The position numbers were made by a program, and so were the translations under genes. Shown here piece after piece: positions 31,617 to 64,000 of a stretch of 64,000 bases of DNA. The stretch is from contig QPMI01000525.1 in NCBI GenBank assembly GCA_004431415.1, positions 38,187 to 102,186 of the forward strand, read 5' to 3'. The notes below the pieces were generated by a model. The model saw nothing but the letters and a program-made list of their open reading frames with translations, made no database searches and was not told the DNA's origin. The DNA comes from Cyanophora paradoxa CCMP329 (taxonomy: Eukaryota > Plantae > Glaucophyta). Every line of letters begins with the position of its first letter. Within the stretch, counting starts at the first letter, position 1.

Positions 31617-31954
31617 GAAATTTTGCCGGTGGCGCCTCCTCTAGTGCTCGAGCGCTTGCGCGCGCAATAATAGTTGCTATAGTAATAGCTAGAGTAAAAT
31701 AATTAATTTTAAGAGTAGCTAGGGGAGGGGGGGGGGATCCGGAAGCACAGGATCGAGGTTAAAGGAGGGTGGAGGGGGGGAGAGAGATCTAGAGGGCAGA
31801 AGTGGGAGGAGAAGGGCTGGAGGAGGGGGATCGCTAGCTAGCTGTTCTATCGCGAAAATTCGAGGGGAGATCTAGATCTACAAGTGCAAGATCTAGATCG
31901 AGAGCTCGAGGAGCCCGATCGACCCTTGAGCTTTCGCTGCGGCACGCGATATCG

Positions 31955-41396: not shown

Positions 41397-42146
41397 TTCG
41401 ATTCGATGTCGATCCGGCCGCGCGCCGATCCGCTAGGCGAGCTTGGTATATATATATTAATATTCGGGTCACGTATGCATATGCGTAACTAATCACGAAT
41501 AATTTCTTCTGCTTCTAGTACAACTAGCTTTTCTTCTGCTTCTAGTACTAGTTAGATCCCTGTAAACTCCTCGTGATCAGCTTACATTTGTTAGTAGGAC
41601 ACTCGTGGACACTCGCTAGTACTAGTATTAATTCGAATGTTTCTCCTGTGCCTTGCGCCTCGAATATCGTTGCCGTCAGTCTAACGCTTTTGCCTGGACT
41701 CTTCGTCCCGAGTACTAGTCCCCCAGATGCAGGATTATATATAATTAATGTTCCTGTGCCTCCTGCATCTGTAGCTGTGCTCTTTTTCTGCCGTTGATGT
41801 TGCTCGGAGCTTGTACATGTGCGGCACTGATTCACGGGAGGGCCCGGGGGAGGGGGGGGGAAGGGGAGAGGGGGGAAGGGGAGAGGGAGGAAAGGGGGGG
41901 GAAGGGGGGGGGGGGTGCGCAGGTGTCGGAGCAAGGCTCTGCGGTTGAGCGCGCGCTCGGGGCCGGCTTAAGTTGCGAGCGGGGTCCCAAGCCCCAGCGT
42001 CGCAGGCTCTATATGTTACAAGCCTCCTCGCCGAAGAGCAGCGGAAGATCTAATTTGTATCATTCTTCTGGCGCTATAAGCAGCGGAATATTTAATTCAA
42101 ATCACTTTATTGAATTTAAGAAGAGCAGCGGAATATTTAATTCAGA

Positions 42147-45100: not shown

Positions 45101-45928
45101 GAAGCAGGAGCGGCGGGACAGCGGGGCGGGCCTGAATGACGCCCCCAGCGTCGACGATAAACGTTGGGTCTGCACATGCGAGCTCTTCGGTTGGGTCTGC
45201 ACACGATTAGGAGAGTCGTGCACGACCCTCAATTCGAATCTAAAGCGGCCCTCACCGATGGTCCCCGGGAGCCTCAGGACGGACCCGCCGAAGAGGATCG
45301 CATTGGTGCCCTGCACGCGGCGTCGGCGCCGGTGGGCGGCGGGGGGGGGGGGGGGGGGGGGGGGGGTGCGGGGGGGGGTGCGGGGGGGGGGGGGAGACAT
45401 CGCAGCAGTGGCGCTGCGGCGCACGTTTGCAAGGAATGTCTGCGCGATCCGCCCCATCTCCATCTGGACCTGCCGGAAGCCCCCGCGCCAGAAGGGCGCG
45501 CCGATAGGCGTCTGGGCGACGGCGAGCTCGACCGACAGCGCCGCGAGTGCCGCGGTGCCGTACTGCGTCACTAGAATCTGCGGGACATGTCACAGTGTGA
45601 GTGAGCGCCCGCGGCCAAGGCGGCGGGCGAGGGAAGGGGCGTTGGGGTGCGGGGCCGGACAGCGATGGAGAGGAGGCCCCGGCGCTGCTGGGCGCGGGTG
45701 GCCGCCACGACGACGGCGAAGGACGCGGCGACGAGGCCTAGGGCCAAGACGGCTACGATGCAGAAGCGGAGGAAGAGGCCCGCCAGAGGGCCTGCGCATG
45801 CGGGCGGGCGGCGCAGCTGAGGCGCGGCGCGGAGCGGCGCCGGCACCGGCGCCGGCGGCGGGCTCGCGTGAGCGCGGCGGACCGAGGAAAGGGGCCCTCC
45901 TGCCCTCCATCTGCGCCCCACGAGCCAT
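42147..45928 (-). CDS. Membrane-anchored PAS-domain class III nucleotide cyclase, predicted adenylate cyclase
   Basis: [101 protein letters not shown]. PAS segments ANGAAAAIL and GVRRGGERFPAQVSL; N-terminal TM helix. The Lys (VKLIGD) plus Asp (WDVYG) pair indicates ATP specificity. Confidence 0.88.
43770..43950. repeat. (GGGGC)n tandem array, potential G-quadruplex, intronic in the cyclase gene
   Basis: About 180 bp of near-perfect GGGGC/GGGGGC units. Confidence 0.9.
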
Positions 45929-46263
45929 CACGAGGCGAAAAGTAACCGTATGCCGAGCGAGGAGCTAAAATCGTTTTTTCAGAGAAAAGAGGCGCGCCTC
46001 GAAGCGGGCGTAGTCGGCGATCGCCGCCTCCGCCTCCTCGGCCTGCGTGGGGCGCCAATCAAAAATTATATATAGTGTCTTATAAGACTTTTGATTTATA
46101 TAAATCTTTCTCGTTATATATATTGTGACTGTTAAGACTATGTGGGGCGCAGAGGGGAGTGAGGTGCGCGCGGCGGCACGTGCGGAAGCCGTGCAGAGGC
46201 GAGCTCGAGCAGCGAGCAGACTTTATCGGCGAGCTTCGAAATTCCACCGCAATCCCGAAATTT

Positions 46264-48450
46264 TCAGACGGCGCGGCGCACCTCGTCCTCGCGATCGCCG
46301 CTCGGCGCCTCGGACCCGAGGGCGGGGGCCTCCCCCTCCTCCTCCCCCTCCCCCTCGACCCCGCCCCCCCGCTCCGACGGTGACGACGCCGCCGCTTCGT
46401 CCGACTGCAGGTTGGGCGTGTCCGCCCCGTACGCCTGCGCCTCTCCGCCCGTGGCATCAGGTGCCGCCTCCTCGCGCTTGGGGAAGAGGGGGCCGAGGAT
46501 TTCCGCTCGGATTTCGCGCGCAGTGCTCCGCGGGATCTGAGTCGGGTCTTCAATTTTAATTCGAGGCGGCAGGGGCGGGCGGGGAAGGGCCGAGCGGGCC
46601 TGCAGGAAGACGCGGAGAAGGCGATCGCGGGTCCACCTCACATACCAGAGCACGGGCAGCATCACCCCGAATCTGGGCGCCCGGTGAGGCGGGGCGAGCG
46701 CCGGCCCGATTGCGGGGCGGGCGTGCATGAGGAAGACAGCAAGGCCAGCGGCGGCGCAGAAGAGGGCAAGGGAGGAGCGGCGCATGGCGCCCAGTCGGTG
46801 GATCTGCAGGCGGCCGAGCTCGTAATTTGGAGGCACGCGGGGACCGGGCCGTGGCAGATTCAGAGAGCGGCGCGGACTGAGCTGGTGACGAAACTAAACG
46901 CCACGGCCAAGTTGCCGCCGGGGAGCGCCACGTGTCTGGCCATGGGGCGCTTATAATTAGGCTTCAGAGGAACCGAAGGAGGGAGGAGGAGGGGAGCAGA
47001 AATTAATTGAAGGCCTAGATCTAGAGGGTTCGCACGAGTTGGCGAGGAGGAAGAAGAGGCCAGGGGTCATCCGGCCGGCCGCGATCGCGCGGAGCGCGGA
47101 CGCAGACGCAGATGCGTTGGCGGCAGCCGCCGCGGGCGGCCCCGCGGCCGCGGCTGCCGCCGGAAGCAGGGCTGCCGCCGCCAGAACGTCCTCGGCCGAG
47201 CGGAGCGCCGTCAAGAGGCCGTCCAGGAGAGTCACTGTGCGGTTCCTTTGGCTGACGGCCGCGGCGGCAGCCGCGGCGGCCGCGGCGGGGCCGGACGTCG
47301 ACGGCGGGCGCCCGGCGCCGGCGTGGCCGGGGCGTTTGGAAGCAGTACCAGCTCCCGCACAGTGACGTTGGACGACCAGAGCTGCTCGCGCGTCAAGAGA
47401 GGCGGCGCCCGGACCGCGGTCCAGGGCTGGGAGAGCAGAAGCGCACGTCTGCAACGGGAACGGATTTCCCGAATTCTCCCTCGGGCACGTTGAAGAACAG
47501 TTCCTGCAAGGGCGATCAGGAAGCTGCCGCAGCGGGCCCGCCTGAACCCCTCTCTCCGATACGGCACGCCTGAAGAGCGCGTCGCAGGTCCTCAGTGCAC
47601 TCGCGGAGCTGCGCTGCGGCGGCGGCGGCGGCCGCCGGCCCGCGGAGGGCGGGCGGCACAAGGGGCGGGGGCGAGGCGAGTACCGCCAGCTGGAACGCCC
47701 GCGCTTTCTGTGGGCCGAGCTTCACTTCGAATTCGAGGGCGGCCGGCAGCGGCCCTCGCGATCGCAGGAAAGGGGCGCGCGCGCCTCGCCCATGCAGGGG
47801 ACGTACGAGCGCGTCCGCATCGCGCTCAGCGCTCGGCTGCGGCGGGGCCGGGCCGGGCCGGGGGGCAGTCACTGAGTCAGCCTCGAATCGACGCGCCATC
47901 GGGCGCGGCGCGAAATTTGAATCTGCGCACTTGTGCACGCGGAAGCTGGAGCGAACCACATGAAAGTTCGCGAGGAGCGCCGCCAGCAGCGCCAGCACCT
48001 GCCCGCCCACGGTCACGCTCCACTTGCTATTGGGGAGTGCGCGGTACGGAGAGGCACGCACGGAGAGGAGGAAGGCGACGTGGAGGACGGCGAAGGCGCG
48101 GTGGTAGCGGGCCCGCACGTCGGTGGCCACTTCGCGGCGCTGCGCGGCCGACCCGTGCGCCCACTGCCGCTTCAGCGTCGACGCGGCGGAGGACGTCCCG
48201 CCCCCTGTGTCCTCGCTCGGCTCCGACGCCGATGCATCCAGCAGCGCCGTTGTTGCGTCCTGCGCGGTCGGCCGCCGTCGGTCGGTCCTCGAGCTCGCGC
48301 CGAAGCGTAGCGGGGCGGGCAGCGCGCGCGCGCCTCCAGATCGTTGTCGAGGCGACGCTCACGCAAGCCGCCCATGCGTATCGATATCGCGCGCACGCCC
48401 GAAGGGGGCGCCCGCGCCTCCCGCTCCGCCTGCGCCCGCTGCGGGAGCAT
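46264..48450 (-). CDS. Hypothetical multi-pass membrane protein (multi-exon)
   Basis: Hydrophobic segments AFAVLHVAFLLSV, VLALLAALLANF, SLALFCAAAGLAVFLM and FGVMLPVLWY joined by plausible introns; likely ATG at 48450. No family recognised. Confidence 0.5.
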
Positions 48451-48465
48451 GCGCAGGCCGTTAAG

Positions 48466-48748
48466 ACACATAGTAAAATGCGGAGTTTTAACCCTCGGCT
48501 TATCTTAATTGATTTTGTTGATATATCTCGTATATTCTATTTCAATCAATCGATAATCTGTGTATATCTTATCGAATATTCAATTATTTCGATTATTTTG
48601 TATTCTTTTCGATATTTTATCTTAAATTTCTCTTATTTTCCGATTAGTCTTACTGAGTCTATCGATAATCTGTATATATTTCCGAATAATATAACTGAAT
48701 CTCAATTAGATCTTGCCTCTGGTTAAAACTCCGCATTTTACTATGTGT
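48466..48748. repeat. 28-bp perfect inverted repeat at the element terminus (arms 48466-48493 and 48721-48748)
   Basis: ACACATAGTAAAATGCGGAGTTTTAACC ... GGTTAAAACTCCGCATTTTACTATGTGT, extending imperfectly inward; internal direct repeat ATCGATAATCTGT. Confidence 0.95.
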
Positions 48749-49000
48749 GATTGGTCTAAAAGTTAATTGATTTAATCGATATTATATTCATGTACTTTCT
48801 CGATTAAATTTAATTAAATTTAATTCATTTAATCGGAAATATATCGCTAAACTCGATTAAGATCCATAAAAGATTCATTTGTTAAATAAAACAAATCGAT
48901 CTCTTATTGAATTCAATCGTAATTATACATGAAATTGATATGTTATTATCATGTTTTAATGATTCTAAGGGGGGACCCTTAGGATTTTTGAAATAATTGG

Positions 49001-49461
49001 GTGTGACAGGTGTGACAGGTCTATCCCAAACTTTTGATAGTTCATTTTTATGTTATAGAAAAGTTTGGGATAGACCTGTCACACCTGTCACACAAACCAT
49101 ATTCAGTAAGGATCTCTTTTAATGTTAAAATTTCAGTGTTAGTTGGTGTAGTTGATTCACAAAATGCATCCTGTCACACCTGTCACACAAACCATATTCA
49201 GTAAGGATCTCTTTTATAATGAAAAACTCAGTAACAATAAGTAAGAAGTTTATCTATGTAATTCTACTTGAATAAACAAATGAAATAATCGAGTGTGACA
49301 GGTGTGACAGGTCCATCCCAAACTTTTGAGAGTTCATTTTTATGCTATAGAAAAGTTTGGGATAGACCTGTCACACCTGTCACACAAACCATATTCAGTA
49401 AGGACCTCATATATTGTGAAAATCTCAGTGTTAGTTGGTGTAGTTGATTCAAAAAATGCAT
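49001..49461. repeat. Two 35-bp-stem hairpins within ~292-bp direct repeats, built from GTGTGACAG iterons
   Basis: Arms 49001-49035/49059-49093 (perfect) and 49293-49327/49351-49385 (one mismatch), both with 23-nt loops; extra half copy at ~49170-49188. Confidence 0.95.
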
Positions 49462-49552
49462 TTATACTCTGATTCATTGTTATTTCCTGTGAAATTTGAG
49501 TCAACTCAACCCACTTAGTCAACCCTCCCATTGAATTCGTAACAAAATCCAT
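49340..49552 (-). CDS. Small hypothetical viral protein (70 aa) ending inside the hairpin
   Basis: ATG preceded by the element's TAGTAAAAG motif; the C-terminus CDRCDRSIPNF is encoded by the hairpin arm. Confidence 0.4.
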   Translation of the reverse strand: MDFVTNSMGGLTKWVELTQISQEITMNQSINAFFESTTPTNTEIFTIYEVLTEYGLCDRCDRSIPNFSIA

Positions 49553-49871
49553 ATACTTTTACTACTTTTACGATTAATATGAGTCAACCTTGAGTCCACT
49601 TAAATAATAGGGTAATAGGGGGAATCTAGGGCAGATGCTGAGTGTTATTGTAAGGAAATCGAATAGTATTCGAAATACTTGACATTGCTTAATGTAGGGT
49701 GCATTCATATTTCGGCTACATCATACAGTAGAATTCTATTGTAACAAAAGCTACTGTAGAAAGAAAATCATTGTAGAAAGCTATTGTAGGAAAGGATATA
49801 TTATATCCTTTTTTAACGATTGCCATTGTAATAAAAAGGTAAATTACCCTGTTTATCATTATAGAAACCCA

Positions 49872-50270
49872 TCAAAACGGGAATCTATCATGTTTATGTC
49901 TCTCAGTCTTCTCAAATGTTAAGAAATTCATTGTTTTATCGATCTCATCTGCTACTGATTGTGTTTTATGCTGAGCTTCTTTACCACAACTGAATATATC
50001 AATTGCTAACATGCCTTCATTGGAATAACAATGAGCTGTGCAATGGCTTTCATCTAATAGCAGAACCAATGCAAAACCAGGAGGTGATAGTTTGCCATCA
50101 AATATCTCACAATGCTTATGAACAATCCTAATACCTTGTCTCAATACTGCTTGTTCAAGGGTTCCCATAATCCAATTACCTAGGAAGCTAACATGCTCAT
50201 AACCTGTTGCTATAGCTGATTTAGCCTTGTAATCAAGCATAACATGAAAGCCTCTGTATTTAGTCTCCAT
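49872..50270 (-). CDS. speD: S-adenosylmethionine decarboxylase proenzyme homolog (short, prokaryotic-type, pyruvoyl-dependent)
   Basis: 132-aa intact ORF: PPGFALVLLLDESHCTAHCYSNEGMLAIDIFSCG, with the E-S-H autocleavage site and the D.F.CG motif. Confidence 0.88.
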   Translation of the reverse strand: METKYRGFHVMLDYKAKSAIATGYEHVSFLGNWIMGTLEQAVLRQGIRIVHKHCEIFDGKLSPPGFALVLLLDESHCTAHCYSNEGMLAIDIFSCGKEAQHKTQSVADEIDKTMNFLTFEKTERHKHDRFPF

Positions 50271-50325
50271 TAAGAATACCTTAGAAAAATTAACTAGTCA
50301 AACCTAATGCAAATATCCCTATACT

Positions 50326-50564
50326 CTACTCTGATTGATGAAGTAGCTCTTTTCCTGTGTGCTTGACTCTTTCTTTTGTTACAGTCCCTGCAACCTGATC
50401 CTTCACATGATTAAAGGGATAGGTAAGGATCACCTTATTACACTGCAAACATCTCACAGATACTTTCTCTTGAGCTTTGATGTAATGTGTCTCACTGTAA
50501 TCGAATTTATCTTTACCATGAACTGTCATAGCAGCATCAATAAACTTTTTTGTTTACTATCCAT
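50326..50564 (-). pseudogene. Fragment of a DUF723/homing-endonuclease-associated repeat protein (frameshift in an A-run)
   Basis: KKFIDAAMTVHGKDKFDYSETHYIKAQEKVSVRCLQC..PFNH resembles the F...A..HG..YDYS..Y.....V.I.C repeat of viral endonucleases. No nuclease domain is visible. Confidence 0.6.
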
Positions 50565-50586
50565 ACTCTATATATAACCAATATTC

Positions 50587-51420
50587 TTATGGAGCAGTAT
50601 CCTGTCCAAAAATGGGGAAATATCGATTTGTGCCATAATACTCAGCATAGGTATTCTGCCTTGCAATAAAATCGGTTCTCTCAGCATATAATACACACTT
50701 GTAGATACCAAACTTGGTGGCTCTCACCAGAAACTGATAGTCTTCCAAACCGAAATTGACTCCATGATAAGCAATACCAAAATTATCATATGGGGTGATC
50801 ACAACTGCAAAATTAGGAGTTCCACCCTCTACTTGACATACAGCATATACATCTGGTGGATATCCACAACTACCTTGTAGTGGTCACCAATTTCAACAAG
50901 AGAGTCTACTACTGCTGTTTGTTCATTTACAACAATGGGGAATATCTTTATAATGTATGGGGCATTCATGCTGGGGACATAGGTTCGAATTCTTGTGTTA
51001 GGATCAATGGGATTGGGTTGATCATTCACAAATAGAGGCGCTCCAACAGCCCCACCAACCCTAAGACCATCACCAATATAAGCTCCCCCGATTTGCAGTT
51101 AATAGCTCCAGACCTAGATTCAAAAGAATAAGTAGACAGAGGATCTCCATAGCTATCTGGGTCTCCATAATGAGCAGAAAAGTTTGCATTGGTAACAAGT
51201 AGCTTAGTTGTCTTAACTAATCCATTATTTTATCACATCTGAGTTCCTGCAATCTCAGTTTGTGGGTGGAACCAAAGGTGTTCATTGTAGGTTGGACCTC
51301 TGTGGATGGGAGACCCTCTACATCATCAAATGTAGCATGCTGCAGAACATGGTTTGCTGGGGCAGCTAATGATAGCTGTGGTGTTATAATTCGCTCTATT
51401 GGTGTGGGTGCCTCTGCCAT
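50587..51420 (-). CDS. Hypothetical viral protein A (frameshifted, ~275 aa), paralog of the neighbouring gene
   Basis: ORF pieces 51420-51217, 51029-50829 and 50802-50587 are collinear; N-terminal LQELRCDK..VKTTKLLVTNANF. Confidence 0.6.
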
Positions 51421-51443
51421 TTTACATTAAAGGGATATATCTT

Positions 51444-52288
51444 TTATGGGGTTGGGTCATCAATAATATCTGGCTCCATGTAAAACCCTGTAACTGAAAG
51501 AGTATCAGGAGTTACACCTCTAAGAGCTGATACAGCGGCTATATCTGTTCTCAAACCGATAAGAGTTATAGTATATAACCCAATATCTGTAACAAACAAG
51601 TCAAAGGTGAAATTATTATTATAAACACAGTAGCCATAACCGAAATGATTATATCCCTGAACATTGAAATAGTATTTATGACCTACTTGATTGTTGTTGG
51701 CTCTACAAAGGGAAAGCATTGCAGATGGAATCGCAAGACCTCTCAGTACTCTTTTGGTTCCTTCAATTAATTCCGAGTTTTCAAGAGTAACAGTATATCC
51801 AATGTAAAATTGAATTAATGGCTGCTGTGCGACAGGAGTATATAATCGAATTCGTTGGGGGTCTTCCACATTTTGCTCTAGAGTATCTGGGACATCATTA
51901 TACGAAATGGAGGATGAGAGTTGACCTGACACTCTGCAACCACCCCAATAAATGCTCCTCCTGATCTCACAGTAACAGCAGCAGTATTCTTGTCGAAATC
52001 TAGGGCTTTCAGGGCAACACTGTAAGCATCAGGACCTCCATTTGTAGGCTGGAAGAAGTTAGCATTGGTGACAAGAAGTCGAGTTGTTTTAACCACACCA
52101 GAATTCTTATCAGCTCTCAGCTCTTTAACTCGAATAATCGAATTCTTATCAAAGGAGTTACCATTGGAATTGGGTCTCTCTGTGGATTCTAAACCACGAA
52201 CCTCATCATTAACTTCATGCTGGCGAAAATGCATTGCAGGGGATCCAAGGGAATATATTGGAAGTTGAACTCGATTATATTCACCCAT
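51444..52288 (-). CDS. Hypothetical viral protein B (one frameshift near 51930, ~280 aa)
   Basis: Overlapping ORFs 52288-51878 and 51932-51444; VKELRADK..VKTTRLLVTNANF; upstream TAGTAAAAG motif. Confidence 0.65.
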
Positions 52289-52327
52289 GGCTTCTTTTAC
52301 TAAGAAGGAAAGAAAAATAAACTACCA

Positions 52328-52633
52328 TCAAGCCAAAGTGATTAAATTCGATCCAAGGGATTGGTAAACAGTTGAAAGAACTTGCAGGTTGGATGTCATT
52401 GCTTTAATGTTGTTATCACACTCATTGTATTTAGCAACAGGGTCACCATATGCAGCTTGAGCAAGGACATTAACCAAGAGGTTTTTATACTCATTTACAA
52501 CTGGTGAGAGCTTGTTAGTTTGCTGAATCGTTTTTTCAACTGTTTGTAATGCGTTTACAAGGGTGATTGTATCAAAAGAAAGTGCAACAGGCTCAGTAGA
52601 ATAGGTGGTTCCACCAAGAGGATAGGTCGCCAT
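52328..52633 (-). CDS. Hypothetical viral protein (101 aa, helical), abutting the fibre gene
   Basis: Intact ORF starting immediately after the fibre stop codon. Confidence 0.65.
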   Translation of the reverse strand: MATYPLGGTTYSTEPVALSFDTITLVNALQTVEKTIQQTNKLSPVVNEYKNLLVNVLAQAAYGDPVAKYNECDNNIKAMTSNLQVLSTVYQSLGSNLITLA

Positions 52634-55600
52634 TTATAATACTGTGATATTTTTAATTTGGTCTATTTGACTTTGGAGATTCTCACAGGTTTGTGTTAAA
52701 TCTTTGCATTTTTGGGATAACTCCTTCACTGCTTCAATGAGAACCGGAATTAAACCTGTGTATGCAAGGGTCAAATAATTTTCGTGATTTTTACCTACTA
52801 CTTCTGGTATGACTTTTTCGACATCTTGCGCAATCAAACCTAAGTTTACTTTCTGTTTTCCATCACCAATCTTTTTGTAACTCACACCCTGTAATTTCTC
52901 AATTGCTGAAAGGGCGCCGGTTATATTTTTAATGTCGGTTTTGTATCTTCTATCACTTCCTTGTGTAAGCCATCCCCAAAAGTAAACGTCACCATTATTA
53001 TAAAAAGCTTGCATTGTTATATCATTTCCTGCTCTAAAATGGATCATTTCGTAACCATAACCTTTAATGTATGTAGTTGATGATGAACCGAAATAAACTC
53101 TCCCATTACCTTCATCTGATGTTATCCAAGTTCCGGTTGCCCAAGTTGTGCGAGCATCTTTACTATATACATTATCCCAGCTGATCATACCATTTGCTGG
53201 TGAGGTTCTCCCTTTTTCTTTCGTCCATCCAACCATACCAATATAACATCTCCCTTTTCTTGCAACAAATCTAACATGTGAGAAATAATCACAAGCAAAA
53301 GAAGCCCACGCCAAACCATCGTGATAATCTGTGGTTCCATAATTTGAGACAGTCTGATAAGTATTAACTCGCATAATGTGGAACCATCTACCCGATCGAT
53401 AACCTCCAATATCGAAATATCGACAATTCGACCAACACAAATATTGGACATGACATGTTTGCATATTTGCTGGGACTTCAATTTGCGCCCAATCACCACT
53501 TGTCGAATCACCTTCAACAATACTATAAAATCCATCGACGGGATTAGAATAAGAAGCTGTCCAACCTGACACCCAAGATCCACTAAATGATAGACCACCA
53601 CTACCTGTTCCACTCCAAGTATCAAAACCTGTAATATTTCCAACTAAATTCGTTGTTAGTAGATTTGGCTTACTATAAATGTTATCCCAAGAAACATAAC
53701 CTGTGTGACCACCATAACTACTTCCTGTCCAAGTGCGAGTAAATCCAATGCCCATTATGTAAACTCTTCCTACCTTTGGAATAATACGAAGGCGAATAAA
53801 GCGATTTCCCAACATAATAGGGACATTTTGTAAACCATTGTGGTTTCCATCTGGTGCGCTTTCATATTGATGATAACTATTCACTCTTGCAATGAAAACC
53901 GCATTTCCTTGTCTATTAATTCCCCAAATCTCAAAGTAACGACAATTTACCCAAGGGAGATATAATAAGTGGGCTGTTCCCGTATATAAATCAGTGGGTA
54001 TTGTGTAATCAACCCATGAGCCGTTTACAACTGTGTCGCCACTCTCATTATTGTAAGCATACCCACCGTAATTGTAATAGGGTTCCCATGCTGTTCCACC
54101 TTCAAAACCCCAACCTCCTGCATAACCATGTGGCGAATTTCCTGCAACTGATGCATCATATTCTACACATCGAGGCATTGTTTTGTCGCCAAATTTATAG
54201 TTTGTAGTTGCATTTATTGAACCCCCATTAATAATTGTTCCACTTATAGTCGGAGCGGATACAGTATTATTCACCCAAAGGTTGCCGTTTTCATAAGATT
54301 TTAATAATGCTGCATCCCCTGAGTTTCTGAATTCGATGCAAACGCTGTCACTATTGGGTCTACCTCGAATATATGTAGTGCTGGCGTTTCCAAAATAAAA
54401 CCGCTCATAGTTGTCAGTTGATTTAAGCCATGTCTGGACAGCCCATGTTGCTGTTTGTGGGAGGTCTGCGGCTGTAAATAAAGCGGGACGACTGTAAATA
54501 TTATCCCAACTAATCAAACCATTCGCTGGTGCTGTTCTTCCTACTTCTTTTGTCCATCCAAGCATTCCAATGTGAATTCGTCCTTTCTTTGCAAAAATTC
54601 CAATATGAGAGAAATTCCCACAAAATACGGAAGTCCATAATAAACTCGAATGCCAATTTGTGTCGGCTGTGTTTTGAACATTTTGATACGTATTCACTCT
54701 CATAATATAATTCCAACGACCATTGCGGTATCCATAAATATCAAAATATCTTGAATTCGTCCAACATAAGTATTGTATGTGACAGGTTTCATTCCTGCTG
54801 GAACAACACACTGCATGTAGCCACTGCCACTTTCATCATCTGTCTGGTTGCAATAAAAACCCTCTACTGGGTTATCTGTTGTGGGTTTCCATGCTGTTGT
54901 CCAAGCCCAGCTGGGAATGCTACACCTGTGCTATTCCAACCACTTACAACATCAAACTCGGAATATTTGCCAACAGGATTGAAAGCAATATTATCGTAAT
55001 GCAATAATCCTGCATCATTATCAGTTGCTCTTTGTCGACTCCAACCAAAGACACCTGTAAGATAAATGCGACCTTTTCGCCCTTGAACATATATTTTACT
55101 GTAAAATTCGCAGTTTACTGAAGTAAATATTATAGCTGGGTATGTTCCATCTTGAACTGCAACATCCTGAAGTCCTTGATAGTTATTTATTCGTCTTAGG
55201 AAATGTTGATGTCCATTTACAGTTTGCCCGTAAATATCGAAATATCGACAAGTATGCCACAGTAAAAGTTGAATATAAAACGATTTCATACCTTCTGGAA
55301 CTGTCCAACGCATAAAACAACCATTACAATCTTCATCATTTTGTGGTATTGTATAACATCCTGTTTGTCCTGTTCTTTGTCCTGTCCAATTGACTGTCCA
55401 ATTATTTGCGCTTCTATCTGTTGATACTACATCTAACTGATCAAAATCATAACCTTTTGGAATTGTGGTTCCACCAATTTGTAGAGTGGTAGCATTCACA
55501 GTTCCATTGACAGTCCCACCTGTAAGAGGCAAATAGTTTGCAAGAGCTGTTGTTAACTCTGCATCTGTTGCATAACTGCTTAAATCTGCAGAGGTAAGAT

Positions 55601-58600
55601 AACCTTTATTGGTAAGGTAATCATCTGTGACCACTCCTGAAAGGGTTGTATTGTGTAAGTTTTTTGCTGCCATCCTCTGATTGACTTCTAAGGCGCCACC
55701 TGATGTTGTTTTAATCCAGGACATCTCACATTTACCATGATCATCTGTGGGTTGTCCTGCAACTGGAAGGTAGTTTACAACTTTCTCCCTTGTAAACACG
55801 ATTTTAGGTCTTGCTCCATCATATGGGTCTTGATCTGTTACATTAACTTGAATTGCTGCTGAAAAATTGGCTACTTGTCCTGTTTCTCCTGGGTGATAAT
55901 TCGTTACATAGATACTTGGGAAAGTATCATTAACTCCCACATTAAAATCGCCATCATAAACTCCATTAACAATTGGATCCCTGGGTAATCTTACTGCAAG
56001 AGTTCCCACCATTGGGGTTCCTGTTTGACCTGTAAAAGTCCCATTGAGACTAACATAATGATCATTCAAAAATAGCCTTTCAGGTGTATTACTGGATTGG
56101 TAAAGTGTAACTCCATTGAAAACATTTCCAATCGCATTCAACAGTGCAAATACTGGTTGTTGATCGATTTCACTCCAAGGGTGTCTGTGATTGCAGTTGG
56201 TGATCTGGGAATAATCATGACTGTGTGGATCAGGTGGAAAAGTTAATGGTGGATTTACGATTTGCTCCCATAAATGCCCATGGGAACTGGGAGGGAATGT
56301 TAATGGTGGATTTGTTATATGCTCCCATAAATGCTCATGTGCAAAATCTGTTATTTCATCTTTTGTGTGGGTGTGGTTGTCGATCCAACCTAAAACTACA
56401 TTGGATGTAGGATGATTTGGTAGATTTGCTGCAATATTCACAGTCAAATAGTCGACTTCTAGATTACTTCCGTAAATATTGCTTGCCCATAGATTACTGG
56501 TGTAAATGTTACTTGTATAAAGGTTACTGGTGAAAATGTTACTTGTGACTGTAAGGTTTGTGTCATTTTTGATCACAAAAAGAGAAAGAATGTTTGTTAA
56601 TTCACCTTCATCAATATATCCTTGCTCTTCTAAATAATCCTCTGTGACCACTCTCGAAATAGTCTCATTGTGAATATTCTTTGCAGCCATCCTCTGATTG
56701 GCTTCCAGAACCCACCATAGTTTGTTTTAATCCATGCAAGCTCTGCCCTTCCATAGTTATCATTTGCAGTTCCCACTATGGGAATATAGGAATATTTATC
56801 TCGACTGAAACTATCATTGGTCTTGATCCATCTAGACTGCTTACATCTGCTACATGAACCTGTATAGCAGAGTTGTAATTTTGGTAGGTTGCTGGGTCTG
56901 TTGGGACTCTGAATGTATCTGTGGGAATGTCAGCCTCCATGTAGCTTGACACAAAGATATTTGGTATGGTTGCTCCTGGTTCAGGTGGTGGATTATAAGA
57001 GCCTGGTAATGTCCTAATATGAAGTGGTCCTCTCATAGCTGAATTCGCAAGTGTCCCATTCACATGAACATAGTGGTGATTCAAAAAGATCCTTTCAGGG
57101 ACATTGCAAGTCTGGTAAAGAGAAACTCCCAGAGTAGCAAGAGGCTCAACTTTTGCAAATTCTGGTTGGTCATTGATCTCATCCCAGGTGTGTTCATGGT
57201 TGCTTGCTGCAAACTTATCTGGAATCCCATCAATATCACCCCAATCATGCCTGTGGTCTTCTGGTGGGTATTTCTGTGGTTTGCCTAAGATCTCATCCCA
57301 GTCATGATTGTGGTCCTCTGGAGGATATCTCGCTGGTTTATTGTTTATTTGCTCCCAGTCAGGGAAGATCTCGAAAACCTCAGGTTGCAAACCATCTGGT
57401 AACAGTTCCTCATGGGGGTCATGGGGTTGCTCATAGTCAACAGCTGGGGGATCATGACCATCTGCTAAATACTCCTCATGTGGTTCATAATTCTGCTCAT
57501 ACTCATACTCTTGTGGATCATGTCCATCTGCTAAATACTCCTCATGGGGTTCATAGTTCTGCTCATACTCATACTCTTGTGGGTCTAAGCCATCTGGTAA
57601 TATTTCCTCCTCATTGGGGTCATATTGATCATATTCATACTCTTGTGGGTCGAAACCATCTGGTAAATACTCTTCCTCATCTGGAACGAATTGATATTCA
57701 TCAAGCTCTAATATATCGACTTCAGGAGGTAAATACTGCTCATCTATTTGCTTTCTGGGTTCAATTATAGGTTTATTGCGAACTTGCTCCCAACTCACAA
57801 TATGCTGCCCAAAGGCTACATCTTCAGTTGCTGTGTATTCTCTTCCAGGCTGCTTCTTTGGTGTTAGATCGGGTGGTCCATTGGGAATGGAATAGGGAAT
57901 GGGACAGTAGGTCCATTGGGACCATAATGCTCAATGATTTCCCTTAGAGTTTTCTCACTAACAAGCTTCTCTCCATTTGCATACACATTGCTGCATGGAT
58001 ATTTCGCCATTGCCTGGTTCGAATTCCAAGGTCTTTCACATTGCTATACAAAGGCAAAGGTGCCTATCCATTTCGACTAAATCAGGATGCAAATGGATTG
58101 CTACTGGTTGACTGGGGCTACTGTTGATTGTAATTGATGGCTTTTTTGATGGACATCTTTTGGAGTAAAGAACCCAAAAGGCTCATTTCTTGCAAAGTCA
58201 TATGTAATATCCTTGGGGTAGACATCATTTGTGTAGGAGACCTGATTTGTATTGGCAATGGGACCCACTTGCAATACTTGGGGACCTCAGCTTTTGCAGT
58301 GCTGCCCTCATTGTAAATTCGCAAAGCTGTGTTCTGTTTGCCCTGCTCATCTTGAACATTGAAAATCAATCGACCACTATCGAACCTGGAAGGTATATCT
58401 GGGTGAGTGCCACTGGTTTTCAGTTTCCTAGGTCTCCTTCTGGTGGCTTTGATCTCTGCCACTTGGTTTGCTTTCACATTACCCAAACTAAAAGCAACAC
58501 TGACATCCTCTTTATCTGGATCGGTTTGATTCACAGATAAAGCATGCTCCCTTGATTGAGTCTTTGATGAATTATCAGAGCTGTGGTCAATTGAAACTGA

Positions 58601-58696
58601 ACCCTTTACTTTAATATTATCAAAGTTCACATGCTTGGTGCTGCTTGCATTATCATCTTGAATGGTTTCTAGATTGGGTGGGTAATTGAAGCTCAT
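52634..58696 (-). CDS. Giant modular fibre/spike protein with C-terminal peptidase S74 intramolecular chaperone (probably one ~2000-aa gene broken by frameshifts)
   Basis: C-terminus SDRRYKTDIKNI..GLIAQDVEKVIPEVV..LAYTGLIPVLIEAVKEL; HxHxWxxIxxxP repeats; four copies of a W..(C)RYF(D/E)I.G..R.N.Y module. The duplicated block WIKT..GG.LE.NQRMAAKN spans the 56776/56690 break, linking the ORFs. Confidence 0.8.
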
Positions 58697-58739
58697 GGCT
58701 TTTACTATATGGATTTATAAAATTCCTGATAAGTAAAAG
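58697..58739. promoter_or_regulatory. 43-bp divergent intergenic region with back-to-back (T/A)AGTAAAAG motifs
   Basis: TAGTAAAAG-CC-ATG on - and AAGTAAAAG-ATG on +; the same motif precedes the ATGs at 52288 and 49552. Confidence 0.7.
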
Positions 58740-60290
58740 ATGCCTCTCAAAGTAGTTCTCAGTTTGTCAGGGGAGGTGCAAGGGGCATTATCATAACCAG
58801 GCTGCTCAAAGAAATCGAAAATCGAACTGGCAGGAGAATAATCGATCTTGTGGATCTTGTGAGTGGAACTTCCACTGGTGGGATCATTGCTATTGGGTTA
58901 AACATCAGGCATCCTGATAAACCAGGTGAACCTAAACTGACAGCAAACGATTTACACAATATTTACCTAACTCAACTGCCCTTGATTTCGCAAATCCTCG
59001 AAATATCATTGAAAATGCCCTATTTAACACAAAGTATGATGTGGGACCCTTGGAGACTGCAATCAATTCAGTTACTGGTGAATCACTAATACAGGATTCC
59101 CTTAAGGACATTGTGATCACATCCTTTGATACTCAGAATATGAAACCAATATTTATCACAAATGACAACAATTACAACTTTATGCCTTGTAAGATTGCTG
59201 CTAGGGCTACTTCTGCTGCTCCTACATATTTCTCTCCTGTAAGCATTGTTGATTTCAATCGGGGAGTATATGTCTGTCTTATTGATGGTGCCATTTCGGG
59301 AAACAATAATCCCAGTGTGTGTGGTTACAGCCATGCAAAGAAGATTTACAGTGATGATGATGATATTATAGTAATAAGCATCTCTTGTGGTGAGGTAGAC
59401 CCACATTTAGAGTCTGATTATGTGGGTTATGCTTATGAGACTGTAAACAGCTGGGGTATTCTCTCATGGATTGCCTCAACAGATGGAAGCCCATTGATTA
59501 ACATGCTCATGGCTGCAAGTGAGCTTTCTGCCCTTGATAAAATGGAGGAGCTTTTACCCTACAACTATGATCAGGATTATGGGAGATACTATAGGTTATC
59601 AGTCCCTCTTCCAAATCATATAGTAAGCTCCCTGGATGACACATCTAAGATCCCAGACATGCTTGCATTCACTGAAACATACATTGCAGCAAACAATGAT
59701 ATGATCAATAAGCTTTGCAGCCTTCTAGTAGCAAACTATGAACTAAAGAACCCTTCAAAGGCTTACATTTCATCCACTCTCACTACATCACCTCCTTTGG
59801 ATGCCAATTGGTATCAGCTTGCAGATGATGCCTTTACTGCCTCATCCTCTGTGACAGGTAAAGAGCCTTTCATGGCTAGACTTCAGCATTTGGCTGGGAA
59901 GCTGGAGCCTATGCTCCTGAACAGATATGGGAAACCCCACTGAATACCTTCAAGTTGCTTTTCCATATACTTTTGAACTCTCCTCTGTGATTGCCTATGG
60001 ATCAGGGGACACCAATGCTTTATTAAGACTTTCAATGTGGCAACATCCACTGATGGGATCAACTGGTCTTTTATTCGATCAGATGGGCAAAACAAAATAT
60101 ATGTCTGTGAGAACATTAACAATGCTCACAACTCTGGTGATGTGGCTCTATTGAGTGGGTTCCTCTCAGCATCAAGGATGCTTTTTACATAGGTTATTCT
60201 CTGAGAATAAGATATATTCGCATTTATCCCCTTGTGTATGTGAATGCTCCCACAATGAGAGTTGACTTTACAGGTGCCTTTATTCGATAA
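58740..60290 (+). CDS. Patatin-like phospholipase fused to a C-terminal F5/8 type C (discoidin) domain (frameshifted)
   Basis: VLSLSGGGARGII (after restoring one G), SGTSTGG nucleophile elbow, ARATSAAPTYF, LIDGA. C-terminal FTASSS..EYLQV.F..STDGINW..RYIRIYP..TMRVDFTG. Confidence 0.88.
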
Positions 60291-61201
60291 ACTCCAACTG
60301 AAAAGAATTATCGATTCCATTCATATCAATCAGTTCACCAAAGTAATCTTTAAACTCCACAGTGAGTTCCCTTATCACCAGGTTTCTGTCATTGATTTGA
60401 ATAAATTCTGCATGTTCACCACTATGGTAAACATAGCCCCCTATATCTTTACTCAATTGCAATCTAAGGATAGCTCCCTGGTTTTGTGGTTGCGATTTTG
60501 GAATTATATTGTGTCTGCTGGCAAAGGGGGACAGCTCTTTAATATGCATGTACAGATACTGCTCAGCATTCATATCAGACATCTTCCTGCTGTCAAAATA
60601 ATATTGCAAGGGCTTAGAGGAGAGTCTGGGTCCTGAGAAGGTGATTCCCCATGCTGGGTGATCAGGTGTAATAGGTTTGCCATCATACTTTAAAAGGTTC
60701 TCAGGTCGATAGGGAGATCCACCAACAGGAGGAGTGCTATAATACCCAGTGGTGTATTCAGTAGAACTTACACCCAAAAGCTTTCCTATTCTCTGGTTGC
60801 TTGCAATAAACGAAACTCATGGTTACTGTAAAACTCCACTTTATAGGTTGTTGGTTGTAGAATATCTTGAACTCAAAAGCTACTGTTTGCCTGCAATAGT
60901 TTGGAAGCTTGAATAGTTCAGCCCATAATTATAAGGTGTGTGACCCAAAATGACCCTGATTGATGTAGCCACTGGGAAGGGATACACTTGTTGTGTGATC
61001 ACTTGGTTATATGAACCATCTTGGTAATTAAACTGAACTGTTAGATGATCAGTTCCACACTGTTATAGATACTGTTTGGAATCTCTGCATAGAGAACCCT
61101 ACATTCCTTGGTCTCTCTACTGGAGTGTGAGGGTGACCCTGTAAGAGTTTTCATTTGTCCTTGCTTCTATCCCTGCTATCAATATTAACGAGCCGGTTCA
61201 T
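60280..61201 (-). CDS. Minor capsid (penton) protein 1, single jelly-roll (frameshifted)
   Basis: MNRLVNIDSRDR...NSYRVTL at the N-terminus; YLYMHIKEL and IRELTVEFKDYFGELIDMNGIDNSFQLEF at the C-terminus, the PLV/NCLDV penton pattern. Confidence 0.8.
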
Positions 61202-61230
61202 TTTAATATATAAATATAGATAAAAGAAGA

Positions 61231-62223
61231 ATGCCTGTGGATTACATCGAGGTTAGCTCATTTAATACAATCTCTGGTGATGGTCCCACATCAAGCTTTG
61301 TGGCTAGACTCCCAGTAGTTATGAGAATGTGAGGGCTGTGAGACTGGTCTCAGCCGAATTTATAACAGTATCCCTATGGTGAGTGGTGAAACCAAAGCAG
61401 GAGATGTGACAGTTGACAATGCATTAGCATTTATTATTCTGAACAAACTCCTGGAGCTGGAAGCTCAGGAATTCCAACAGTTCGCCCAGCTGCTGACTAT
61501 GAACAATGGAAACAATTCATTATAAGTCGAACACCCCATCCAAAGCCACCAGCAACTGTGAATGTAATTAACTCTAAATCGAAGGCAGAAATCCCAACCA
61601 TCCATTCGCTGCAAATGGGATGAATCACTGAAACGAATTATATTCCACTCAGCAGTACCATTGTACTTGGCTTTCTCAGTAGCTGTGAACCCAAGCCAAC
61701 AAACAATCCAAAAGCTGTTGAGTTCGCTAGACTGCTGGGTCTTGATCCTGGAAGATATGGTAACTCCCAATCCAATCACAGGTCTATGATGCTCTCACTG
61801 ATGGAATCTTTACTGGTGGTCGCGTGAATGGCATTATATCTTCTTTTGAGCCTGAGAAGACCAGGGACAGTGTTTGTTTGTGAGAGTAAAGGAGCTGGGT
61901 GATCTGGTGCAATGTGGGGATGGTCTTCTGACTGGTTACTTCACAAAAAGTGGTCCCTGAAAAGACTATGGTGAGCATGTTGTTTACAATTCAACAGAAG
62001 CTCACCCACTTACAAATACTATAAAAAAGGTTGGATATCCACTTTCTCGGTTGATATGTAATGCTATAATGAACCAATTGATTTTGAGGGTCAACCTGTT
62101 CATCTTACCTTTGAAATTCGCTATGGTGATGAGCCAGCTGGGACCCAGTTTATGAATACTTCAAGATGCGAATGTCACAGCTTCACCTTCCTATCCAGTT
62201 ATTACAAACTTCGCATAAATTAA
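61231..62223 (+). CDS. Minor capsid (penton) protein 2 (heavily frameshifted)
   Basis: MPVDYIEVSS....GPTSSFVARLP..YENVRAVRLVSAE; C-terminal YNEPIDFEGQPVHLTFEI. Confidence 0.7.
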
Positions 62224-62266
62224 GGACATTGGAGATTTTTATGTTGCAGTATATAAAAGAGAATAA

Positions 62267-63605
62267 ATGGATATCACTTCCACTCTTCAAAGACTTCGCT
62301 GAAAGAAGCCTAACAACCCAGAAGAGGCGAAAGCCTTTTCCTGGATAACTCCTTATGCTTGGTCTCGAATCCAAATCTAAGCCAGTTCTAGTTGTTGTGA
62401 ATCCAGCAATACTTTTGAGAATAATGTTGGAAATCGCATTTCCTTCAAGCTACCTCGCTACAATTTCTGTGGAAAACTCGAACTTGCTTTCGACCTCCAG
62501 CCATCACGTTTGCTGGTGATACTGACCTAGTTCGCAATGGATACACTCGCCAGTTGGTGCTTTAGTTCAGCGACTTGAAATTACCTATGGATCTTACACC
62601 TACCATATTCCATCTGATTCCTTGCTCATTCCCCTGGTCTATTATTCGGAGGATCAACTAGCTAAAAGAAGCGATCAATGGGCATGGTTCATGGCATTCC
62701 TGCTCATGGAACCAACCGCTTGGTGGCTCATTCTTTGTTGAAATCCCTGTGCTTGGCTAAATCACTACTTCCCCTTGGTGCTTTACTGGTGAAATGGTGT
62801 TACTGTTTGGTTTAAGGATGCTGGAAGGGTTATGTTGAAACTTCCTATGTGGTCGCTCTCTCCCTGTTGTGTGGGACAGTTGCTGATAAGAAGAAGATGA
62901 TGGTCTTGTGATACTGCTAAGCTACACTTGCCCATGTTGGTCAAACATCACAACTTTCAGTCTTGGTGCACAACCCTGTCATTTCTATTACTTCTCCTCG
63001 CCTTTACATGCATGCTATTAATGTTTCTGATGAGCTTTTCGCTACTGTAATTGAAAAGTAAGACTACTGGCATGGCTATTCCCTCCCTTGATATTGGATT
63101 TGTAGATGCTAGTGCTTTCCCTGCCAAGGGCAATGCCCAACCCAATCGAATTAACCTCTCTCAAATCTCAGGTCTTGTATATGCTCTGCTTGTTTCAGTT
63201 CGTGATCATGAAACTGTTGACAAATCCAATGGCTCCCACAGTGTTCTTAAGACCTATGCCAACTCCAAAGACATCACATTCACAACTGAAATAAATGGTC
63301 AGCGACTTTTGCCACTGAGCCAATTTCCTACTCAAAGTGCTGAGCTAATTGCTGATGCCTTCAAATGCTCTAACATGGATAAGGTTGCTGATCGCTATGT
63401 CCTTTCAGGACTCCCATTCTGCCTTGATGGAGAAAAGGCAATTCGAAATATTGCCCAGTCTGGTTTTGTCGATTTAACAAATTCCTCCTCTTCATTCCTC
63501 ACCCTCTACATGCCTTCAGATAAGGTAATCGATGTTAATGTTCGCGCTCTCATGCATTCGTTTATAATTTTGGACAAGGATGGATTACGTCGTATAAATC
63601 TTTAG
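62267..63605 (+). CDS. Major capsid protein, double jelly-roll, PLV-type (frameshifted, ~445 aa)
   Basis: GNRISFKLPR...LELAFDL, VQRLEITYG, LLPLGA.TGEM.VTVWF, NRINLSQISGLVYALLVSVR, FTTEING, and DVNVRALMHSFIIL. Size and position between penton and ATPase genes fit. Confidence 0.72.
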
Positions 63606-63669
63606 ATCTTACCATATTCAGTCACCCTGCATTATTTTTATCTGTATTTATTTAGAAAGATATACAACA

Positions 63670-64000
63670 ATGACTGATTTGGATGAATTTGTGGCTGGTG
63701 AAATGATAGAACCACCATTTCGTGTATTAGCAATAGGCAAAATCAGCACTGGTAAATCAGAAGCTGTAAGTATTGGTTGAAGCAAACTGCATGATGCCAA
63801 AAAGATTGATGTTGTATTAGTTGTGAGTGGAACCAGCTTCAATCATTTCTGGGATAAAGTGGCAACACTGCAACTGGGAAAATGGGATGCCCCTTACATT
63901 CTAAATTGCTAGATGAGAGGCAAGAGAAAATAGAAAAGGCGAACCTGTTAAACAGCTATGTGTGGTTTTAGATGATTTAATCGATAATGAAATAGTCGAT
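63670..64000 (+). CDS. A32/FtsK-HerA-family genome-packaging ATPase (truncated by the window; frameshifted)
   Basis: PPFRVLAIGKISTGKS (Walker A), VVLVVSGT, LCVVLDDL (Walker B). Confidence 0.85.

Follow-up and report, generated by a model that had tools for sequence, protein, structure and literature searches.

A Probable Integrated Polinton-Like Virus in the Genome of Cyanophora paradoxa: Its Capsid, Fibre and Accessory Genes

The analyzed window, 64,000 nucleotides of the Cyanophora paradoxa CCMP329 contig QPMI01000525.1, very probably holds one arm, with the capsid and fibre genes, of an integrated Polinton-like virus (PLV) with many near-identical copies, most likely hosted by C. paradoxa and likely intact in the cell, its reading-frame breaks likely coming from the assembly. 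The element lies in high-GC host DNA, and GC content falls from 0.67 over positions 40000–48463 of the window to 0.39 from 48464 to the window end. The portion inside the window is the left 15.5 kb, so the total length is at least 15.5 kb; PLV genomes measure 14–40 kb between their terminal inverted repeats. A first-pass annotation of this DNA had read it as an endogenous PLV in an algal, perhaps glaucophyte, genome. The GC step, the identity to a named C. paradoxa capsid protein and the capsid fold support that reading. That the element is an endogenous PLV is much more certain than how it lives, and both the virus family and most of its unusual genes are already present in published surveys.

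Capsid Module

The gene for the major capsid protein (MCP; 62267..63605, plus strand) was recognized through a named C. paradoxa protein, herein referred to as P0001, identical in 253 of 423 aligned codons (60%). Table S2 of an earlier survey lists P0001 among its MCPs (HHpred 98.5%; PMC10120064), and the protein agrees with its row there over the 400 letters displayed. A second MCP shown in that table, from tig00021571, seems by eye closer still to the window MCP. The double jelly-roll fold on which the first-pass annotation had made its reading depend was borne out by structure prediction for P0001, a relative of the window's own MCP. The model (mean pLDDT 58 from 7 rows; 34 from the single sequence) matched PBCV-1 and iridovirus capsids (Foldseek E 1e-16) and aligned to double jelly-roll capsids with Z 22.5 (rmsd 3.9, 341 aligned residues). 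P0001 also scored 0.98 to Capsid_N clusters in the Atlas. As modelled through P0001, the MCP is thus of the double jelly-roll type of PLVs (Polisuviricotina). For the mavirus and Sputnik MCPs, Z was 12.5–12.8, versus 22.5 for PBCV-1, with the same model of pLDDT 58; so modelled, the MCP is not of the virophage type (Virophaviricetes: Sputnik, mavirus).

Relatives of this capsid are rare. Homologue searches with the MCP returned P0001 alone, the MCP profile matched no PDB sequences, and 4 further plausible matches of the capsid type were found among 1.84 billion representatives. P0003, a bacterial repeat protein, was discarded as a chance match. Scans suited to close relatives gave none: viral contigs searched with a piece of the MCP, P0008, the decarboxylase, the patatin and penton 1, and metagenome contigs searched with the MCP piece and P0008. 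The capsid type seems to lie outside any named group.

A likely minor capsid protein (penton 1; 60280..61201, minus strand, broken) was suggested by a motif seen by eye and an Atlas score of 0.93, of low recognition value, to a cluster with Sputnik V18/19 in 52% of its members. A possible second penton (61231..62223, plus strand), heavily broken, is placed by position and a motif seen by eye; it had no Pfam matches, and its similarity to penton 1 was not significant (10 of 30 shuffles as good). The window ends inside a likely packaging ATPase of the A32 type, whose first 110 codons (63670..64000, plus strand) are broken and show Walker A- and B-like motifs by eye. It had no significant family match in profile searches, and 15 of 100 shuffles did as well against one A32 ATPase.

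Fibre Gene

A giant fibre gene (52634..58696, minus strand), as ordered by frames and profile searches, is likely one continuous frame that spans about 2,020 codons and is interrupted by nine inferred one-base breaks; at least seven of these were seen in the indel table. Its parts are 66-nt repeats, a shaft module present twice, an unnamed domain of about 145 aa present four times and a C-terminal S74 chaperone (Pfam E 1e-16). The four-copy domain, which is new here, had no match in Pfam, PHROG/phages or PDB. Three viral contigs, two of which are giant-virus-like, also carry it, and a repeat scan recovered these three again. NECAP1, a candidate relative (E 0.01 with 7 rows), was rejected. The fibre part with this domain looks different among copies of the element.

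Lipase, Decarboxylase and Smaller Genes

A broken patatin phospholipase (58740..60290, plus strand) was found in two pieces (Pfam E 2e-7 and 1e-6) with its glycine-rich, GxSxG and DGA motifs. It likely ends in a discoidin domain (E 0.027; 15 bits against a cut-off of 28.2).

An unbroken gene of 132 aa (49872..50270, minus strand) encodes a class 1b AdoMetDC-like pyruvoyl decarboxylase (Pfam E 5e-11). Alignment to the PDB shows the ESH self-cleavage site and the Cys, that is, the Glu-Ser/His/Cys set of class 1b. It scored 44 bits against TIGR03330 (cut-off 76), and tblastn against phages gave none at 1e-5. Several viral AdoMetDC homologues can decarboxylate ornithine or arginine (PMC9992855), so the substrate of the predicted enzyme may be AdoMet, ornithine or arginine. 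Like these homologues, it is a pyruvoyl proenzyme of the small prokaryotic type carried by a eukaryotic virus; those tested in that work come from phages and giant algal viruses. Literature searches for AdoMetDC together with Polinton found no papers.

Two paralogs of about 280 codons each, A (51444..52288, one break) and B (50587..51423, three breaks; frame order), lie on the minus strand and share 47% identity over 49 aa and 42% over 57 aa (E about 5e-11). Paralog A had no homologues among 223 candidates, and B had no family matches in Pfam or PHROG; both are likely virion proteins. A helical ORF of 101 aa (52328..52633, minus strand) had PHROG matches at E 0.02–0.03 only. Missing from the first-pass gene list was a small, broken zinc-ribbon-like ORF (approximately 50300..50564, minus strand, left bound approximate), which resembles repeats of HNH/homing endonucleases (PHROG E 0.002–0.006) and which may be DUF723-like. 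From the gene kit listed there, the S74 fibre, the patatin, the AdoMetDC homolog and the paralog pair were confirmed, whereas the discoidin domain, pentons and ATPase are read from weak scores or motifs.

Terminus and Terminal Repeats

The left terminal non-coding region (48464..49800), delimited by the GC step and the joint table, is likely one terminal inverted repeat. In all three DNA-type runs, a contig with a different flank joins the element at 48464 (21 letters on the short side). The element end likely begins with AG at this position, two bases to the left of the 48466 given previously. A terminal cassette of 283 bp (48466..48748) is closed by inverted arms that match perfectly over 28 bp and at 81% over 47 bp (hairpin z -8.9, with none of 200 shuffles as good). 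It is also carried by other copies, since one contig of run X20 spans 48473–48988. Next come two direct repeats (48989..49461) of 181 nt each (93%), with a 35-bp hairpin in each (49001–49093, 49293–49385; z -12.8, again 0 of 200 shuffles). One X20 contig has this repeat as a single unit. In the scanned contigs, the terminal 20-mer had no exact match, the scan detecting close relatives only. The terminal repeats reported earlier thus stand for the left end; a pair of terminal inverted repeats cannot be claimed because only one end is inside the window.

Upstream Motif and Life Cycle

The TAAAAG motif precedes six of the 11 starts, which were picked by the analyst (paralogs A and B, fibre, patatin, penton 2 and MCP; 51420..62270). 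This was reached in 4 of 2000 shuffles, in agreement with the shared upstream motif of the first-pass annotation. In five of the six genes, TAAAAG stands 0–7 nt ahead of the ATG, and the usual polymerase II TATA box stands farther away. A canonical TATA-like octamer is located ahead of the MCP gene. The mimivirus-type early promoter occurs once in the element, within a gene; no giant-virus early promoter was found ahead of genes in the portion within the window.

Gezel-14T (PgVV-14T), a PLV virophage of Phaeocystis globosa, likewise has an MCP, a phage-like long fibre and a lipase, together with a minor capsid protein and an ATPase, of which the element has likely counterparts. Its fibre and lipase were detected in its particles, which argues for a virion role of both here. 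Its lipase is an alpha/beta-hydrolase rather than a patatin, and its early promoter, AAAATTGA, is absent upstream of the genes in the window. It also has a tyrosine recombinase, found in 0 of 156 glaucophyte elements in Table S6 of PMC12220804.

A helper-dependent, virophage-like life cycle is about an even call. It is favoured because Gezel-14T needs a giant virus, because giant-virus inserts are reported in C. paradoxa (PMC12344493), and because TAAAAG is too near the ATG for a TATA box. Somewhat less probable, though still the best of the alternatives, is an autonomous member of the same family that relies on host polymerase II for replication in the nucleus and needs no giant virus, like TsV-N1, described as a nuclear-replicating PLV. 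The octamer before the MCP gene and the lack of giant-virus early promoters before genes agree with autonomy, and an own fibre and lipase would permit independent entry, as the text of PMC12220804 argues; however, Gezel-14T is helper-dependent despite having both, and the TAAAAG spacing also speaks against polymerase II promoters.

CpG observed/expected is 0.37 in the element and 1.21 in the host, with 53 CpG at codon joints against 126 expected. Giant-virus contigs are likewise CpG-poor (0.65–0.69), so part of the loss may predate integration. In C. paradoxa, 32% CpG methylation with methylated viral genes is reported (PMC12344493), and the provirus is likely silenced in this way. In an active phase, the MCP and penton(s) would form an icosahedral particle into which the ATPase would pack DNA. 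The S74-folded trimeric fibre would attach to the cell surface, the packaged, lectin-anchored patatin may serve membrane crossing, and the predicted decarboxylase may raise polyamines for replication or DNA packing. The window portion contains no replication or integration gene; the right arm would hold an rve integrase with a protein-primed polymerase or a primase-helicase, going by the family counts in PMC12220804 (85, 49 and about 40 of 156).

Copies and Frameshifts

The element is one of many near-identical copies. The first-pass annotation had suggested a count of copies; when copy number was gauged by depth, single contigs inside the element were roughly 50–270 times as deep as flank contigs (4528 and 8444 versus 79–90 in run X2, 2326 versus 9–27 in X5, about 2100 versus 8–22 in X1). 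The element is integrated, GC-distinct and multi-copy. Two runs guessed to be RNA left most of it uncovered, which is neutral as to expression.

The many frameshifts are likely long-read assembly errors, and artefacts of this kind are reported in PMC10120064. Several observations argue for errors rather than decay. The MCP gene has 16 one-base deletions, 2 insertions and no in-frame stops over the 423 codons aligned to P0001, a one-sided deletion bias. All 24 indels in the listed part of the table (83 further rows lie outside it) are one extra base in short-read contigs; 23 of the 24 touch a same-base run and 19 a run of at least 2, against random expectations of 0.45 and 0.18. An alternative genetic code was dropped, as the apparent stops disappear when frameshifts are allowed. 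A decayed provirus, with real frameshifts and a dead copy, or a family mobile only within the genome, is therefore improbable. It would fit the roughly 30 breaks counted by eye in 15 kb and the CpG loss, which suggests long residence. Short-read contigs also merge all copies and lose rare variants, so the extra bases cannot be attributed to this one copy; against decay, deep contigs agree with the element over stretches of 350–390 letters with 0–1 differences.

Relation to Catalogued Viruses

In the parts of two surveys available to us, the same MCP type is recorded in endogenous C. paradoxa PLVs (QPMI01; PMC10120064, PMC12220804). The first counts 366 MCP loci in this species, including this capsid type (Bellas 2023, PMC10120064); in its Table S4, two C. 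paradoxa clusters (272 and 94) apparently belong to an unnamed "Iterative HMM searches" block. Table S6 of the second lists 156 glaucophyte elements (Bulzu 2025, PMC12220804), with lipase in 89, AdoMetDC in 66, S74 in 37, ATPase in 139, minor capsid protein in 97, rve in 85, pPolB in 49 and primase-helicase in about 40. No maturation (Ulp1) protease, tyrosine recombinase or virophage MCP profile is listed there, and the survey's own MCP profile matched only 2 of the 156. The element shares with this table the S74 fibre, lipase and AdoMetDC, and its likely ATPase, likely minor capsid and HNH-like genes also have counterparts there. According to the survey text, S74 fibres are ubiquitous in PLVs, and fusions of patatin with discoidin occur in both Rhizaria and glaucophytes. 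Both MCP type and accessory set (lipase, S74 fibre, AdoMetDC) are thus those of the catalogued family. The earlier suggestion that this might be an undescribed lineage with a kit of its own mostly falls, because as far as these tables go the element belongs largely to a described clade with the same gene set. The parts of the two surveys at hand make no mention of the paralog pair, the four-copy fibre domain, the terminal hairpins or the upstream motif; PMC11244446 does not mention Cyanophora.

In the PMC12220804 tables, cryptophyte PLVs likewise have modular fibres ending in S74, with AdoMetDC in 10/177, 17/57 and 45/706 elements of three species; they differ in carrying SLATT genes, being almost without lipases and having MCPs that match the survey profile. 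Polintons/Mavericks (Polintoviricetes) have in common the double jelly-roll MCP and likely the penton, the ATPase and the AG terminus, as well as the rve and pPolB genes tabulated for part of the glaucophyte family; they differ in the maturation protease, tabulated for 0 of 156 family members, and neither pPolB nor rve lies within the window.

That the element is instead part of an endogenous giant virus (NCLDV), or a dwarf virus resembling NCLDVs, is very unlikely. In favour of this, NCLDV capsids head the fold and Atlas matches, giant-virus-like contigs share the fibre domain, and the host has giant-virus inserts. However, the layout from terminus to ATPase is compact, P0001, P0002, P0004 and P0008 had no Capsid_NCLDV or Capsid_N Pfam matches, the PDB matches listed include no PLV capsid for comparison, and both surveys, in their available parts, treat the loci as PLV-sized elements. 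An assembly chimera or contaminant is scarcely credible: the assembly is error-rich and the junction contig of run X5 (1070 letters, 47423 to 48492) reaches only 29 letters into the element, under the 31 of the bridging rule in the read-contig comparison, but this independent short-read contig at flank depth equals the junction with zero differences, and 38–46% of words were found in 18 runs under one organism label. The flank holds a PAS_2 phytochrome-type piece, which, like the identity to a named C. paradoxa protein, speaks for the proposed host.

Implications

As a record, the element is one more locus in a family already counted in hundreds. The integrated PLV nevertheless bears on wider questions. 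A bolder reading, which we consider doubtful, takes the elements of C. paradoxa for a capsid lineage of their own, unclassified and nearly restricted to this host, whose intact proviruses act as inducible virophages against an unknown glaucophyte giant virus; the copies would keep a conserved core and a working polyamine decarboxylase and would exchange the fibre tip, made of an unnamed receptor-binding domain that giant viruses use as well. The first-pass annotation knew of no characterised virus from glaucophytes, and literature searches found no paper on a cultured one. Since C. paradoxa is a culturable model, likely intact proviruses make the question testable. Elsewhere, the capsid type has hardly any relatives, and current taxonomy seems to have no place for it. 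The fibre domain in four copies, shared with giant-virus-like contigs, gives a concrete lead on host recognition by such viruses.

Membership in a Catalogued Family of Elements

The Polinton-like virus (PLV) element found from 48464 to the window end (64000) is a member of a catalogued Cyanophora paradoxa family, its class placement being putative. In this alga, 366 loci for the major capsid protein (MCP) were reported, forming two clusters of 272 and 94, and the elements were estimated in the same paper to make up ~7% of the assembly (PMC10120064). Among 156 glaucophyte elements, genes for ATPase were found in 139, minor capsid protein in 97, lipase in 89, and rve in 85 (PMC12220804, Table S6). 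AdoMetDC is given for 66 of the same elements, pPolB for 49, and S74 for 37, with protease and tyrosine recombinase at 0 (PMC12220804). The MCP profile of that study matched only 2 of the 156 elements. S74 fibres are termed ubiquitous there. For glaucophytes and Rhizaria, the paper names fusions of discoidin to patatin and puts forward the same hypothesis on entry; AdoMetDC appears in its table without discussion (PMC12220804). Such proteins in C. paradoxa were noted earlier still (PMC8502044). Thus, the gene set for which the first-pass annotation proposed a possibly undescribed lineage was already in print (PMC12220804, PMC10120064). The source of the Polinton gene set is PMC11161782; the passages covered of a 2026 classification preprint contain no mention of glaucophytes.

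Gene Content and Layout

The GC content drops at ~48464 from 0.67 in the host to 0.39 in a block extending to the window end. Six-frame reading of this block revealed eleven closely packed gene starts with short spacers between them. The leftmost 1.3 kb consist of non-coding repeats. Next on the minus strand, from left to right, come AdoMetDC and a small zinc-ribbon-like ORF, then the two paralogs, followed by a 101-aa ORF and finally the 6-kb fibre gene. To the right of the fibre gene lie patatin on the plus strand, a candidate penton 1 on the minus strand, and then, on the plus strand and in this order, a possible penton 2 and MCP, after which the ATPase gene begins.

Curated Pfam cut-offs were passed by 4 of 42 ORF pieces (AdoMet_dc, Peptidase_S74, and two patatin pieces), which confirms the S74 fibre, patatin, and AdoMetDC of the first-pass annotation. 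In its patatin-discoidin lipase, the discoidin part is likely, with a score below the family cut-off. The two proteins described as paralogous are indeed alike in their first halves (E about 5e-11) and only weakly alike in their second halves. Viral AdoMetDC homologues may use other substrates (PMC9992855).

The common upstream motif also held: TAAAAG precedes 6 of the 11 starts, a count reached in 4 of 2000 shuffles, and longer upstream words are weaker (39/2000 and 67/2000). CpG is depleted to 0.37 in the element, which fits the reported host CpG methylation of viral genes (PMC12344493).

Capsid Proteins

A homologue search with the last 177 MCP codons gave one match, the named C. paradoxa protein P0001 (456 aa, 60% identical). 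In a frameshift-aware alignment of the whole gene to P0001, 253 of 423 codons are identical. This protein was printed as an MCP (HHpred 98.5%) together with five other C. paradoxa MCPs (PMC10120064). Among 1.84 billion representatives, six matches were found. Besides P0001, four of them are plausible as distant relatives; the sixth, a bacterial repeat protein, was set aside as a chance match. A distant capsid group from environmental assemblies (P0004-P0008, contigs up to 11.9 kb) is ~25% identical to P0001.

The fold of P0001 was predicted from a 7-row alignment (pLDDT 58). With this model, the capsids of iridovirus and PBCV-1 were found at E 1e-16, and viral models at 1e-19. Structural comparison gave Z 22.5 for PBCV-1 (rmsd 3.9, 341 residues) and Z 12.5-12.8 for mavirus and Sputnik capsids. 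As modelled, the capsid fold is the double jelly-roll previously proposed. The Atlas lead for the capsid is to Capsid_N clusters (score 0.98; recognition value low). The remainder of the proposed capsid module, two pentons and an A32 ATPase, fared less well: for penton 1 the Atlas gave the sole lead, and in shuffle tests 10 of 30 shuffles scored as well as penton 2 and 15 of 100 as well as the ATPase. Position and motifs seen by eye make the latter two assignments possible.

Breaks in the Reading Frames

Relative to P0001, the MCP gene contains 16 one-base deletions, 2 insertions, and 0 stops under two of three penalty settings, and 21 deletions and 1 insertion under the third. Short-read contigs from three DNA-type runs have one base more than the window at all 24 indels listed (24 of 107). 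A run of the same base is touched by 23 of these 24 (random expectation 0.45), and a run of two or more same bases by 19 (random expectation 0.18). The pieces of the fibre gene (~2,020 codons) all shift frame in one direction, as from nine one-base losses. Deletion bias, same-base runs, the extra bases of the contigs, and the frame order of the fibre are together the signature of long-read error, artefacts of which have been described for such elements (PMC10120064). The contigs pool all copies, so the extra bases speak for the family as a whole, and the window copy itself is putatively intact; copies in C. paradoxa are likely intact.

Fibre and Its Unnamed Domain

The fibre contains S74, tail-repeat matches, and 66-nt repeats. 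Within its last 900 codons, a ~145-aa domain occurs four times, at 29-59% mutual identity; no match to it was found in Pfam, phage, or PDB searches. A pattern scan detected this domain in 3 of 36 candidate viral-contig stretches at 30-40% identity, with one copy in each. In L003 (7907-11086) it belongs to an S74-ended protein, on a contig where two NCLDV capsid genes are also found, along with a cap methyltransferase; in L002 (8861-10582) it lies behind collagen repeats, on a contig with Xrn1, RNase III, and SWIB; in L001 (8429-10645) it is located in a fibre-gene cluster. Two of the three contigs (L002 and L003) thus carry giant-virus marker genes. Other pieces of the element had no match in these three loci. 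The place of the domain and its aromatic residues suggest that it could bind sugars or the host surface.

Contig depth over 53.7-55.3 kb is below that of paralog A (112-620 vs. 2326 in run X5; 730-1373 vs. 4528 in run X2), as expected if this part of the fibre differs among copies, and suggests that the fibre-tip region is variable. Over 52660-55487, contigs of three runs are shallower and show more differences than in the adjoining genes.

Terminus, Integration, and Flank

One X5 contig equals 47423-48492 without any difference, at flank depth, with 29 letters inside the element vs. 31 required by the tool for a bridge. Another flank joins the element at 48464 in all three DNA-type runs, placing the probable element end at 48464, likely with AG as its first bases. 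Polinton ends begin with AG. Element-internal single contigs are ~50-270x deeper than flank contigs, depth being a rough guide rather than an exact copy number.

The terminal repeats noted earlier were borne out by a 283-bp cassette with inverted arms (48466-48748) and by a pair of 35-bp hairpins; in each case none of 200 shuffles scored as well. These structures might serve as origin or integrase sites. The word AGTAAAA occurs in each arm and also before three genes, which may be chance in AT-rich DNA. Contigs of X20, a guessed RNA run, span the terminal region and the entire AdoMetDC gene (48473-50291) with 3-23 differences; contigs cannot show expression. Short shallow contigs of X19, a run with a second organism label, cover 58700-63476 and diverge from the element by up to 6%; they may reflect a close relative in another strain or species, or carry-over.

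In the host flank, a sensor gene, likely of phytochrome type, is represented by pieces at 31838-40700 (PAS_2 match at 31838-32449, E 5e-8), with kinase- and receiver-like pieces near 39200-40700 recognized by eye and having no Pfam match. The host stretch 17000-42000 has lower GC (0.51-0.63 in most bins vs. ~0.70 around) and normal CpG, and no viral genes were seen in its long ORFs.

Probable Mode of Action

The element probably works as other endogenous PLVs do. It would be inserted by an rve-type integrase and then silenced as a provirus; particles could form, attaching via the fibre and entering via the lipase. In Gezel-14T, fibre and lipase are packed, and a giant virus is needed (10.1101/2022.07.28.501842). 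In Tetraselmis and Chrysochromulina, PLVs that act against giant viruses are the subject of two papers. For the present element, a helper giant virus, put at about even odds, is chosen over an autonomous nuclear cycle without such a helper. The remaining interest lies in the apparently unplaced capsid type and in the unnamed fibre domain that also occurs in giant-virus-like contigs, with likely intact copies residing in a culturable alga.
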